The notes under the pieces are model-generated. The model was not told the DNA's origin, did no database searches, and was given only the letters and a program-made list of their open reading frames with translations. Made by a program: the position numbers and the translations under genes. This document shows, piece after piece, positions 3,324 through 33,110 of a DNA stretch of 64,000 bases. Position 1 is the stretch's first letter; each line of letters opens with the position of its first letter. The stretch lies in the NCBI RefSeq assembly GCF_054482595.1, contig NZ_CM137008.1; one strand, given 5' to 3'.

Positions 3324-4532
3324 TCAGGCTGTCGCCTGAATCATTTCGGTGGGTTCCTGCTTCAACGGGCGGCCTGACTGCACCATCTCTCCACAGGCAA
3401 GAACGGCGTGCCCCGCCGCTAAAATGTTACGAGCGCCATTTACATCGGCGTTCGCTGTATATCCACATACCTGGCATCTGAATTTACTTTGTGACAGGCG
3501 GTTCTCTTTCGCTGTATGACCACAGTACGCGCAACGCTGGCTTGTATACGCTGGCGGAACAGCAAGCACCTGACCGCCACGCCAGAGCTGCTTGTACTCA
3601 AGCTGGCGGTGCATTTCATACCAGCCCTGATCCAGTATCGAACGGTTTAAACCTGATTTTGCCCGGACATTGCGCCCCGGCTGGCTGACCGTACCCGCTG
3701 CTGACTTTGACATGTTGCTGACCTTCAAATCCTCAATGACTATCATTGCGTGGTTTTTGCTGACGGCCGTTGTGACTTTGTGAAGGTAGTCCCTGCGGAT
3801 ATTTGCGATACAGGAATGCAGTCGCTGTATTTTGCGTTTCTGCTTCTGCCAGTTGTTGCTGAATTTGACCTTGCGGCTTAACTGTCGCTGAAGTCTCGCC
3901 AGCGTCTTCTGGTTTTTCTGAAAACTGTTTACAGGCTCAAAGACTGTGCCATCTGACAGCGTGGCGAGTTTAGCCACGCCAGCATCCAGCCCGACCATTG
4001 ATGCTGAAGGGTGAGCCGGAGTGGATACTTCACTTTCTGTCTGAATACTGATGTACCACTTACCGCAGGACTGGCTGACAGTGACATTTTTCACAACACC
4101 CGTGACCTGACGGCTGTTCCGGTAGCGCATCCAGCCCAGTTTCGGCAGAAAAATACGGCTGTTTTCCTGATCGAGCTTAACGCCCTGCGGGTAGCGGAAT
4201 GCATCATTCTGTCCCCGCTTTTTGAATCGGGGAAAAGCAGCCCGCTTCCGGAAGAAGTTTTTGTAAGCCCGCTCAAGGTCTTTCAGTGACTGTTGCAATG
4301 GCTGTGAGGGAGAATCTTTAAGCCATTGCGTTTCAGTGGCATTTTTCCACTCAACCAGCCAGGAAGCCATTTTCCCGTAAGGGATGTATTTATTACCGGC
4401 CTCATGATTCTCATTCTGACGTGCCAGAGCACGATTGAAAACGAAACGACATGCGCCTGCGAAGCGCCTCATTTCACACTCCTGTTGACCACCTGGTCTT
4501 AACTGGAATTTAAATGCCTGTAATCGTTTCAC
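3324..4532 (-). CDS. insQ: TnpB (OrfB) RNA-guided endonuclease of IS200/IS605 family
   Basis: 402-aa ORF with RuvC-like motifs [22 protein letters not shown] and zinc finger CAYCG...CQVCG. Confidence 0.9.
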
Positions 4533-4539
4533 AGGTCAA

Positions 4540-5046
4540 ATGATACTTTGGTCTGTGAAAAAAGAAACCGATATCCGGCGTGGAAGGCATTGTGTTTTCC
4601 TGATGCATGTTCACCTGGTCTTTGTCACCAGATACCGACGCCAGATTTTTGACCATGACGCGACAGAAAAACTACGCACTTACTTTTCAAATGTATGTGC
4701 TTATTTTGAAGCTGAACTGGTTGAAATGGATGGCGAACCAGATCACGTCCATTTGTTAATTAACTAACCTCCCAAACTGGCGATATCCAGTCTGGTAAAC
4801 AGCCTCAAAGGCGTATCGGGTAGGTTACTGCGACGAGATCGACCAGATATTGCAGTCAGGTATTACTACAAAGGCGTTTTGTGGAGTCCTGGCTATTTTG
4901 CCAGTAGCTGCGGAGGTGCGCCAATATCCGTCATCCGCCAATACATTGAACAACAGCAAACACCTGGTCAGGTGGAAAACCGCGCCTTATATCCCCGCCC
5001 TGAAGGATGGGGTTTTACGGCGCACCGGATAAAAAGCGCCATCTAA
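4540..5046 (+). pseudogene. IS200-type HuH/Y1 transposase TnpA interrupted by in-frame TAA at 4765-4767
   Basis: N-terminal part ...HVHLVFVTRYRRQIF...DGEPDHVHLLIN then TAA; same frame continues PPKLAISSLVNSLKGVSGRLL...YYKGVLWSPGYFASSCGGAPISVIRQYIEQQ to stop at 5044-5046. Confidence 0.7.
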
Positions 5047-5055
5047 CGATGGCGC
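5031..5055 (-). terminator. Intrinsic terminator downstream of ydcL
   Basis: Hairpin gcgccatc-taac-gatggcgc (5036-5055) followed on minus strand by U5 (5031-5035); 8 nt after ydcL stop. Confidence 0.5.
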
Positions 5056-5063
5056 GTCTGGAA

Positions 5064-5732
5064 CTACTTTTTGTTAACGTCAAACATGGTGGCATCGGTC
5101 GCCATGTCATCAATAACTTGTTTAATATTTTCGAAAGCCATTGGCGTACTTTCGTTATTCAGGTCTTTACCTTCGCCCTGACGAACGACTTTGATAACCG
5201 GTTTATTAGTCGCTGCATCAATCAGCTCACCTTCAAAATAGAGGCGAGTATCCATGGTACGGTGGCCTGTAGCCATTTGCGTCCCCGCAACCACTAATGC
5301 AACAGGAACCACTTCATAGAATTGCAGCCCTTCTTTGCTGGTATCTACACCGGTAATGGCCCCACGGAAAATCAGACTACGCGGCCCAGCGGTGGTAACC
5401 ACTGGTTTACGCTGCGCTATCGCTTCTTTCATTTCGGTGTTGGTATAGTTCAAAATTTTATCCAGAACTTTCTGCCCTACCTGGGTAGAAGGTTTTGGTA
5501 CCGGATAATAAGTGATTGGGTTCCAGACGATGCTGTCATATTTGCTTTGATCAAAACTCGGGTCTACCCAACGTAAAACAGGTTTACCTGTTGCTGAGGT
5601 TGTTTCTTTTAAATCAGAGTAATTGTTTAAAAAACCAGAATATTTATCTGGCTGGGTGATTTTAGAGGCACAACCAGACAGAGCCAACAAGCCGCATAAA
5701 GCTGCAACTTTCGCAAATGATGTGGTACGCAT
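5064..5732 (-). CDS. ydcL: Lipoprotein YdcL
   Basis: 222-aa ORF with lipobox LALSGCAS after signal peptide. Confidence 0.85.
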   Translation of the reverse strand: MRTTSFAKVAALCGLLALSGCASKITQPDKYSGFLNNYSDLKETTSATGKPVLRWVDPSFDQSKYDSIVWNPITYYPVPKPSTQVGQKVLDKILNYTNTEMKEAIAQRKPVVTTAGPRSLIFRGAITGVDTSKEGLQFYEVVPVALVVAGTQMATGHRTMDTRLYFEGELIDAATNKPVIKVVRQGEGKDLNNESTPMAFENIKQVIDDMATDATMFDVNKK

Positions 5733-6035
5733 GAATAGTTTCCTGAGATGATTATATTACTTTTTAAGTTATAGCAAAAAGCGCCGCTTCGTGTTGTGGC
5801 AAAAAAAGTGTTGGTGAAAATAAATTTTTTTAGCCCCTTTTCAGACGACATAGTCAATGCCGCAAAAGGGGCTAAGTCAATCATCAGTAGTTAAATTTCA
5901 GTAAGTTAAGCTGCTAAAAAACTTCGACTACTGTGATTAATTTCACATCCCTTCGATAAAAAATATGCTTACCGAAAAGAAGAACAGTAAATCATCTCAG
6001 CGTGGGGAATTTTCACGCGCCTTATTCTTAGCGGG

Positions 6036-6629
6036 TCATTTTTTACGTGCCAGCATCGTGGCGAAACGCAGTTTAATACGATTACCGTTGGCGTCGGTGC
6101 GGTGCAGCTCGCCGACGTCTTCATTGTATTTCACCCTCTCCCAGCCTTCGTAATATCGACGTAATTCTCCCTCTTTGAAGGCAAACGGGAAGCCGACGGT
6201 ACATGGATAATCAGCGGTATCCATCGCCGCCACAATCAGGTTGTAACCACCAGGTTTAGTGCAACGTTGCATATTGGCAATCAACCCGGGGATGGTTTTA
6301 GCCTCAAGGAACATCAGCACCACAGTCGAAAGAATAAAATCGTACTGTCCATCAAATGTGAGGTTATTCAGATCAACGACCCGGGTGTGTAAATTATCCA
6401 GATTTTCAATGGATTTAATGCGCTCGACGTTGGCGATACTCATGGCATTTTTATCCCATGCGTCAACATCATAACCATTGGCTGCCAGGTAAAGACTGTT
6501 ACGACCATTGCCACAGCCCAGATCCAGCGTTTTACCCGGTTTAACCACTTTCACCGCTTCCAGTACTTCAGAGTGTGTGCGGGTTAATTCATATTTATCA
6601 GTAAAATAGTTTTCGTCACGAATGATCAT
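6036..6629 (-). CDS. tehB: Tellurite resistance SAM-dependent methyltransferase TehB
   Basis: 197-aa [25 protein letters not shown]..., motif [15 protein letters not shown]. Confidence 0.9.
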
Positions 6630-7618
6630 TCTTTGTCCTCTGCTTTCATTAAAACGGCGCGCTCGGTTCTGACTAACAATTTTCCCTGCATCAGAAGCGC
6701 GAAAGTACGGATGAGCAGTATTGCAATAATAAAATTGGTAAAGATAAACAGCGGTACCGCCAGCGTATGGAAAAATCCATTTTCGCTGCCACTCCCCAGA
6801 TGCAAACCGGTGGTTGCCAGTGCAGATACGCCGAACGAGAAACTCCAGAATGAAGCATTAAATGGCTGGGAGAGATACCATGGCATCAGACGTAGCATAA
6901 ACAGCAGTTGCAGCAGTCCATAACCAAAAAGCATTTTCGCCAGCGTATCACCCTCGCCGCCGTTGACGCTCAACCAAGCACTACAGGCCACCAGCGCAGG
7001 AGCGAGCTGAATGCCGAGTGATGTCCGCAGTGCCGTGGGTAATTCTCCCGAACTGCGCAGACGCTGCAAGATCACAGGTTCAAGGCTTAGCCATGAGAAA
7101 ACGCCTGCGCCTAAAAACACCAGACCGGCGTCGGTGTAGCCCAACGCACCACAGGCCATTGCGCTGATAAAGTTGTTGGCAACTGTCGGCAGATACAGTC
7201 CAGGCGTGGTAGCTTCTTCAGGGTGAGATCCGCGCCATAATCCCGCAGTTTGCCAGGCGGCATAAGCCAACTGAACCACGACACCAAAACTGAACAGGCA
7301 CACCGCCAGTGGGCGAAACCACGGAACAAAACCAATCGCCACCAGCATCGTCGTTGCCGGAAACAAACTCACAAAACTGCTCATCACTGGATGGCGCACT
7401 TCTGCCAGCACGCTATGCGGAAAGCGTATGAGTCGGGTAATAAATGCGCTAGTTAACAATCCCCAGATGATCATCGCCAGAATCACCAGCCCATCCCCTA
7501 ACCAGTGGCTGACCTGCCAAACCTGGCTGGCATAGCGCCAGGCAAATCCCATCCCTATCGTCCCCAACACAATACCAAAGTAGCCTGCCGGCAAATTGAG
7601 CACTTTATCGCTCTGCAT
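6626..7618 (-). CDS. tehA: Tellurite resistance / dicarboxylate transporter-family membrane protein TehA
   Basis: Track ORF 6626..7726 trimmed to internal ATG ([19 protein letters not shown]...) giving 330 aa; 4-nt overlap with tehB start. Confidence 0.85.
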
Positions 7619-17477: not shown

Positions 17478-18479
17478 ATGAGTAAAGTTGGTATTAACGG
17501 TTTTGGTCGTATCGGTCGACTGGTGTTGCGTCGATTACTTGAAGTCAAAAGCAACATAGACGTTGTCGCTATTAATGATCTTACTTCCCCAAAAATTCTC
17601 GCCTATCTGCTGAAACATGATTCAAACTATGGTCCGTTCCCCTGGAGCGTTGATTTTACGGAAGATTCACTTATCGTTGATGGGAAAAGTATCTCGGTTT
17701 ACGCCGAAAAAGAGGCTAAAAATATTCCGTGGAAAGCGAAAGGTGCAGAAATCATTGTCGAATGTACTGGCTTTTATACCTCCGCCGATAAATCGCAGGC
17801 GCATCTTGATGCTGGTGCGAAGAAGGTGTTGATTTCCGCTCCTGCCGGTGAAATGAAAACCATCGTTTATAACGTTAATGACGACACTCTGGATGGCAAC
17901 GATACCATTGTTTCCGTGGCGTCATGCACCACTAACTGCCTTGCGCCGATGGCCAAAGCCTTGCATGACAGTTTCGGGATAGAAGTCGGCACGATGACGA
18001 CCATTCATGCCTATACTGGCACCCAGTCACTGGTGGATGGCCCGCATGGTAAAGATTTACGTGCTTCACGCGCCGCGGCAGAAAATATCATTCCCCACAC
18101 TACGGGCGCGGCAAAAGCCATTGGTCTGGTGATCCCGGAACTGAGCGGCAAACTGAAAGGTCATGCGCAACGCGTGCCGGTGAAAACAGGTTCGGTCACT
18201 GAACTGGTATCGATTCTCGGAAAAAAAGTGACTGCCGAAGAGGTGAATAACGCACTTAAACAAGCAACCACCAATAACGAGTCATTTGGTTATACCGATG
18301 AAGAAATAGTCTCTTCCGATATCATTGGCAGCCATTTCGGTTCGGTGTTTGATGCCACGCAAACGGAAATTACCGCCGTGGGCGATTTACAACTGGTGAA
18401 AACGGTCGCCTGGTACGATAACGAATATGGCTTCGTCACGCAGCTTATTCGCACCCTCGAAAAATTCGCTAAACTCTGA
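17478..18479 (+). CDS. gapC: Glyceraldehyde-3-phosphate dehydrogenase GapC, intact 333-aa frame
   Basis: [19 protein letters not shown]..., catalytic SCTTNCLAP motif; continuous ORF. Confidence 0.9.
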
Positions 18480-33047: not shown

Positions 33048-33110
33048 ATGCACTCCATGCCATTAAAAAAGAAACAAAAGGGAAATGCATCTTTCCCTTT
33101 TGTATATTCG

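Follow-up and report, generated by a model that had tools for sequence, protein, structure and literature searches.

A stem-loop without a U-tract in the spacer between tehB and ydcL of Escherichia coli is best, if tentatively, explained as a structure that marks or stabilises the 3' end of the tehAB mRNA, and its flank and loop would double as the distal promoter of ydcL. According to this explanation, RNA polymerase would run past the hairpin, as the latter is devoid of the U-tract needed for efficient intrinsic termination, and transcription of tehAB would end downstream, where the next 60-100 nt are C-rich and G-poor, presumably with the involvement of Rho. The 3'-to-5' exonucleases would trim the transcript back to the base of the hairpin, which would thereby protect the tehAB mRNA and form the predicted end of a tehAB RNA, and some contribution of the hairpin as a weak terminator or pause site may be envisaged in addition. 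The same DNA would serve as the ydcL promoter designated P2, with a -35 element abutting the 5' arm, the invariant loop supplying the -10 region and the start positioned just before the 3' arm. This assignment is favoured by the coding strand, the slot that is occupied, a selected hairpin in a sister clade, the conservation of pairing, the stability of the fold, the match to a class of 3' ends described by Dar and Sorek, the mapped transcripts and the overlap with P2. On the whole, the hairpin appears to be a fairly ordinary gene-boundary element, whose embedded mapped promoter is mildly unusual, and a literature search retrieved no paper describing it.

Position, sequence and stability of the stem-loop

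The window, i.e. the whole stretch of 64 kb of DNA analysed, originates from E. coli and carries the minus-strand gene order tehA-tehB-ydcL-IS609, with a tehB-ydcL spacer of 303 bp that has no RefSeq annotation (Table 1). A first-pass annotation had correctly located in this spacer a perfect 10-bp stem with a 22-nt loop (AGCCCCTTTT-N22-AAAAGGGGCT) at 5832-5873, and these values are exact, with the full perfect repeat amounting to 12 bp (5830-5841 and 5864-5875), five of them G-C pairs. The same annotation regarded the hairpin as an orphan with no gene to terminate, which was found to be wrong, since tehA, tehB and ydcL are all encoded on the minus strand and the tehB stop codon is located 160 nt upstream of the hairpin. 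As in the case of intrinsic terminators, a GC-rich stem-loop thus lies downstream of a co-directional gene. The further claim of the annotation that no U-tract flanks the stem on either strand is borne out by the terminator scan, which gave no match at this site: a U-tract, taken as 5 or more U residues among 8 nt and beginning no more than 2 nt beyond the stem, is absent. A run of seven T residues precedes the stem on the plus strand and hence becomes an A-run after the stem on the minus strand, where the tail AAAAATTTATTT opens with five unpaired A residues, followed by TTTATTTT. The upstream flank of the hairpin, GAUGAUUGACUU, is not an A-tract.

Table 1. Genes and sequence elements at the tehB-ydcL boundary (positions are those of the window; P1 and P2, proximal and distal ydcL promoters)
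Feature	Position	Strand	Remarks
tehA	7726-6626	minus	First gene in the order tehA-tehB-ydcL-IS609
tehB	6036-6629	minus	Co-directional with ydcL; stop codon 6036-6038, 160 nt before the hairpin
ydcL (DUF3313 lipoprotein)	5064-5732	minus	ATG 97 nt after the hairpin
Whole stem-loop	5830-5875	minus	12-bp perfect inverted repeat with 22-nt loop; sense to tehB and ydcL
5' arm TTAGCCCCTTTT	5864-5875	minus	Also spacer of the putative ydcL distal promoter P2
3' arm AAAAGGGGCTAA	5830-5841	minus	Corresponds to +3 to +14 of P2-initiated transcripts
Loop segment CATTGACTAT	5850-5859	minus	Invariant in seven Escherichia lineages; contains -10-like GACTAT (5850-5855)
Post-stem tail AAAAATTTATTTT	5817-5829	minus	A-run in place of a terminator U-tract
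TSS 1502347 (ydcL distal start, P2)	5843	minus	Inside the hairpin, 1 nt before the 3' arm
-35-like TTGACT of P2	5875-5880	minus	At -37 to -32, 5/6 match; abuts the 5' arm
ydcL proximal promoter P1	5761-5776	minus	Extended -10 TGCTATAAC (5768-5776), TSS 5761, 29-nt 5' UTR
Invariant block CAACACTTTTTTTGCCACAACACGAAGCGG	5784-5813	minus	Upstream region of ydcL P1; 30 nt, seven Escherichia lineages

Perfect inverted repeats of at least 12 bp with a spacer of 3-30 nt occur twice in the window, as compared to 0.13 expected, and those of at least 10 bp eight times, as compared to 1.9 expected. The sole other perfect repeat of at least 12 bp is located at 33074-33103 (ACAAAAGGGAAA-N6-TTTCCCTTTTGT). RNA folding of the minus strand yields -26.4 kcal/mol (z = -6.2) as compared to -19.3 kcal/mol for the plus strand, and the minus-strand hairpin ranks 20th among 31,978 sliding 46-nt windows of both strands, hence within the top 0.1%. 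The low minus-strand energy is due to the E. coli loop, which adds seven inner pairs including G-U, so that the loop shrinks to 5 nt and the fold comprises 19 pairs and a single bulge; this inner pairing is not maintained in the other Escherichia. Choosing the strand by folding energy alone was abandoned, because the minus strand is favoured in E. coli and the two strands are approximately equal in the other Escherichia lineages, and the type of substitution was therefore used to judge the strand. Another hairpin, of 16 bp with G-U pairs (-25.7 kcal/mol), lies at 5462-5498 on the plus strand, antisense inside ydcL, and belongs to the top five of the distinct local folds of the window in terms of stability.

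Two further origins of the element were considered. An IS609 copy comprising insQ/TnpB and a disrupted tnpA is present at 3324-5050, directly downstream of ydcL, and the hairpin resembles REP/BIME units and the subterminal hairpins of IS200/IS605 elements in being palindromic and GC-containing and in lying between genes in the vicinity of an IS609 copy. However, it differs from them in occurring as one copy per genome and in being separated from IS609 by the whole of ydcL. The element is found at exactly one place per genome and is present in 5406 of the 5426 complete E. coli genomes, and an origin from a repeat or mobile element was rejected on account of this single-copy nature; the sole other near match to an arm in the window is one 12-mer with one mismatch at 17708, outside IS609. 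Two open reading frames spanning the hairpin, of 32 amino acids on the plus strand and of 85 amino acids on the minus strand, were likewise rejected, as 1-nt indels in the A-run and T-run of K-12 shift their frame.

Upstream of the hairpin, the spacer contains at 5932-5947 a perfect CRP core consensus, TGTGATTAATTTCACA, the sole one in the window, with 0.09 expected. This site is conserved in every Escherichia lineage with a long tehB-ydcL spacer and is located 57 nt upstream of the hairpin, with its centre at -96.5 from the distal and -178.5 from the proximal ydcL start. No convincing -10 element was found at a class I or class II distance from it on either strand, and the literature search found nothing on this site. 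On the plus strand, a promoter-like TTCACA-16-TATGCT at 5942-5969 overlaps the CRP site, and a hairpin at 6000-6018, with G-U pairs and a T-rich tail, is terminator-like on this strand only, its sequence varying among Escherichia lineages. Together, such a promoter and hairpin (5942-6028) could yield a transcript of about 50 nt that runs antisense to the 3' UTR of tehB.

The presence of the CRP site 57 nt upstream and the 19-pair fold with a single bulge could be taken to indicate an RNA-processing or small-RNA element, such as an RNase III site in the tehAB 3' UTR by which mRNA decay would be controlled, or the hairpin at the end of a small RNA whose expression is driven by the CRP site. Such a function is very improbable, as conservation of the seven inner pairs is confined to E. 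coli, with the other lineages having stems of only 10-13 bp, as no U-tail for binding of Hfq is present, and as neither a convincing promoter at the proper distance from the CRP site nor a reported transcription start site (TSS) between this site and the hairpin (PMC6131387, PMC3415461) was found. Consistent with this, a scan of positions 5000-7000 against Rfam 15 with permissive E-values returned only chance-level hits (at most 23 bits, E at least 0.67), and a literature search yielded nothing relevant that links tehB or ydcL to CRP, a terminator, Hfq or a small RNA.

Conservation in Escherichia and the slot preceding ydcL

Conservation was examined by comparing seven Escherichia lineages, comprising the window, K-12, representatives of three divergent species, E. 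albertii and a strain with a shortened spacer. As regards the conservation check proposed at first pass, the element was found to be conserved across the genus. The core GCCCCUUUU / AAAAGGGGC is kept in all seven lineages, the positions GC-CC-TTT of the 5'-arm core are invariant, and so are the TTGACT immediately 5' of the stem and the loop sequence CATTGACTAT, the latter despite the lack of conservation of the inner loop pairs. One outer stem pair varies as U-A, U-G and C-G among the lineages, and deviations in the stem are almost all G-U pairs on the sense strand: 13 wobble cells are counted in the tehB-sense orientation versus one in the antisense orientation, and 91 of 95 cells are paired in the sense as compared to 79 of 95 in the antisense orientation. 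This bias is suggestive of an RNA made from the minus strand, although it reflects few independent events in related lineages and a structure that was predicted from the sense strand.

Naturally occurring variants of the spacer were also found. In Escherichia sp. MOD1-EC7003 (L003, positions 2327-2500), 127 bp following tehB are deleted and the CRP site is gone, and the hairpin is kept at a distance of 33 nt from the stop codon. In E. coli ET210 (L083, about 560-620), an IS1 element is inserted in the 3' arm (…AAAAGGGG|IS1) and IS1 sequence is found at the usual place of ydcL. Additional E. coli variants (H20, H44, H50) comprise IS1 insertions and one stem-weakening SNP and are uninformative.

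The position of the hairpin was compared among 80 ydcL loci from across Enterobacteriaceae. Nearly all of the approximately 80 loci possess a GC-rich hairpin whose end is about 96-112 nt upstream of the ydcL ATG, and this applies to loci preceded by tehB as well as to those preceded by an unrelated gene of about 530 amino acids. In Enterobacter, Leclercia, Klebsiella, Raoultella, Trabulsiella, Yokenella and others, this slot is filled by a canonical terminator with a U-tract. Given that the E. coli hairpin ends 97 nt before the ATG, it occupies by its position the terminator slot of the upstream gene. It shares with the canonical intrinsic terminators of Enterobacter, Klebsiella, Leclercia and Yokenella the location about 100 nt before the ATG and a GC-rich stem of similar energy, and is unlike them in having an A-run for the U-tract and an outer loop of 22 nt instead of the usual 3-8 nt, although the inner pairs on the sense strand of E. 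coli reduce this loop to 5 nt. Downstream of the slot, homology extends across genera in motifs such as AATTT(A/G)T..TCACC, TTTTTG(C/T)CACAAC and TTTGCTATAAC, which represent the ydcL promoter module.

The slot hairpin of Citrobacter and Salmonella (CTGCGTTCAGCA-T-rich loop-TGCTGAGCGCAG) is instructive in this respect. It occupies the same slot, again has no U-tract and carries an A-rich tail in most cases: the tail is A-rich in Citrobacter (…AGAAAAAATTGTG), and two Salmonella carry CGCGTTCAAATT, which is not U-rich either. In this hairpin, compensatory double changes were observed at eight of nine pairs, which argues that the U-less structure in the slot of these genera is clearly under selection, as judged from sequence comparison. 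It differs from its Escherichia counterpart in having an unrelated sequence, in being located about 25 nt after the tehB stop and in lacking the TTGACT and CATTGACTAT promoter-like elements.

These patterns also bear on whether the hairpin has any function of its own. It could represent a chance repeat or the decayed remnant of a former terminator, conserved merely through its overlap with the ydcL promoter in a slowly evolving spacer. Indeed, Escherichia shows high conservation all the way from the hairpin to the ATG, including the invariant block of 30 nt downstream of the hairpin, a few repeats of 10-12 bp per genome are expected by chance, one strain tolerates an IS1 element inside the 3' arm, and the Term-seq tables discussed below contain no transcript end in this region. 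Nevertheless, a lack of function is considered rather improbable in view of the scarcity of perfect 12-bp repeats (0.13 expected per 64 kb), a stability within the top 0.1% of windows, the survival of pairing through substitutions in all lineages, the retention of the hairpin despite the 127-bp deletion in L003 and the clear covariation in the analogous hairpin of Citrobacter and Salmonella. Thus, among the possibilities raised at first pass, namely a protein-binding element, an RNA-processing element or chance, the last is disfavoured, and options at the level of RNA or of protein binding are retained.

Transcript maps and the promoter within the hairpin

In K-12, tehAB (b1429|b1430) was mapped by SMRT-Cappable-seq as an operon with a TSS at 1500535, and ydcL was assigned TSSs at 1502428 and 1502347, using a rule of more than four reads together with enrichment over the control (PMC6131387). 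The TSS at 1502347 heads both the b1431 and the b1431|b1432 transcripts, the latter corresponding to ydcL-insQ. No tehAB-ydcL transcript is present in the operon table of this data set, in which a single read is enough to extend an operon. The proximal start at 1502428 is positioned 7 nt after the conserved TGCTATAAC and is the same as 1500452 in the older numbering used by Kim et al. 2012 (PMC3415461), who reported the 29-nt 5' UTR. A SELEX peak of the RpoS holoenzyme falls within the tehB-ydcL spacer (PMC5493296), and the table of Latif 2018 lists ydcL solely among the sigma-70 ChIP-exo promoters, with a coordinate that is unusable. Within the invariant block at 5784-5813, a TTTTTG(C/T)CACAAC core is found which, like the TTTGCTATAAC -10 element, is shared upstream of ydcL by many genera, and the conservation of this block suggests that the RpoS-associated proximal promoter is served by a conserved site for a regulator.

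The distal start lies inside the hairpin. Its -10-like element GACTAT is placed at -12 to -7 and matches the consensus at three of six positions, including A-11 and T-7, and its distance from the -35-like element is 19 nt, as compared to the 16-18 nt range of the promoter scan. P2 is absent from the data of Kim et al. 2012 (PMC3415461) and comes from one dataset. Transcripts initiated at P2 contain the 3' arm alone and hence cannot form the hairpin. The first-pass annotation had suggested searching for transcript starts or ends near the stem-loop, which succeeded with respect to a published TSS inside the hairpin and failed for 3' ends in the Term-seq tables. As the element is conserved across Escherichia and has a mapped TSS within it, the combination of no conservation and no nearby transcript start or end, on which that annotation would have given it up, does not describe this site.

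The location of P2 raises the question of whether the repeat acts as DNA and the RNA hairpin is incidental. The repeat brackets the core of P2 and could constitute an operator for a putative dimeric or tetrameric regulator or an architectural feature of the promoter. This would be in line with the mapping of a TSS within the repeat, with the invariance of the -35 hexamer and the 10-nt loop segment as opposed to the inner loop pairing, and with a single copy per genome, as expected of a local operator. Furthermore, the arms are largely conserved as sequence, and their positions at -32 to -21 and +3 to +14 fit a DNA-level role equally well, which counts against the assignment as a tehAB 3' stem-loop. 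However, no known transcription-factor motif was recognised in the repeat, and the centres of its half-sites are 32-33 bp apart, an unusual spacing for a simple dimer. Changes within the arms preserve RNA-type pairing, as seen from the sense-strand G-U pairs and the U-A/U-G/C-G series, a pattern not predicted by DNA recognition, and in other genera the slot is filled by unrelated hairpins without an evident promoter of this kind. An operator or architectural role is consequently regarded as unlikely, though it deserves some weight.

The absence of a U-tract together with the resemblance to a described class of 3' ends is the reason for which the 3'-end stem-loop of tehAB is favoured. In E. coli, mRNAs terminated by Rho have been reported to carry stem-loops without a U-tract at their steady-state 3' ends, and this class is characterised by the absence of a U-rich tail and of an upstream A-tract and by an excess of C over G downstream (Dar & Sorek 2018, PMC6061677). 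The tehB-ydcL hairpin is similar in being stable, in following a co-directional gene, in lacking both the U-tail and the A-tract and in the prevalence of C over G downstream: the C/G ratio is 2.0 in the 60 nt and also in the 97 nt after the hairpin versus 0.9 in the 160 nt before it, albeit in a small sample, and the RNA downstream of the hairpin is thus C-rich and G-poor. It is dissimilar in having a distinctly A-rich tail and in overlapping the promoter of the next gene. Moreover, unlike in this class, no 3' end is found directly after the stem in the Term-seq tables of Adams et al. 2021 (PMC7815308), which for three conditions list no 3' end at all in K-12 between 1,500,000 and 1,503,999. 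An RNA end at the hairpin is the key step of the favoured explanation, and its absence from these tables counts against it, as does the distance of only 97 nt to the ydcL ATG, which provides little untranslated RNA for the loading of Rho. In the same study, no bicyclomycin-sensitive, i.e. Rho-dependent, region is reported between tehB and ydcL, the nearest being at 1503424(+), after ydcL. This region falls inside the IS609 element. Low expression of tehAB could hide both a 3' end and a Rho region in these tables.

An alternative in which the hairpin itself terminates tehAB transcription was also considered, i.e. a weak or non-canonical, stand-alone Rho-independent terminator, with release aided by the TTTATTTT run that follows the stem at a distance of 5-7 nt or by weak A-U pairs between the flanking sequences. 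The slot is shared with canonical terminators of other genera, the stem has a very high stability, there is no report of a tehAB-ydcL transcript, and RNAfold adds a few A-U and G-U pairs that bring the UAUUUUC next to the structure. On the other side, the U-tract within 0-2 nt of the stem is missing and the tail opens with five unpaired A residues, the additional flank pairs are weak and an internal loop lies between them and the stem, and the Term-seq tables (Adams et al. 2021) contain no corresponding 3' end, which makes such a terminator quite improbable. A comparably improbable extension combines the features described above into a composite terminator-promoter switch, in which the same 46 bp would provide the tehAB 3' hairpin and the -35 and -10 elements of ydcL, with the arms perhaps recognised by a regulator and the orphan high-affinity CRP site feeding in. 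Should this hold, read-through from tehAB, formation of the hairpin and initiation at P2 would be mechanistically coupled.

Implications for the tehB-ydcL boundary

On its own, the hairpin is of little significance, and its description serves to fill in an unannotated gene boundary of E. coli, between tehB and ydcL, with a U-less hairpin, two ydcL starts and a CRP site. It also calls for caution in annotation, in that, before a hairpin is classified as "orphan", the other strand ought to be inspected for an upstream gene that runs in the same direction. The arrangement at P2 shows how the promoter of a downstream gene can be built into a hairpin of this type. With respect to the family, the slot preceding ydcL offers a natural case of what replaces the U-tract once the slot stays and the tail is lost, with Escherichia and Citrobacter both showing an A-rich tail.
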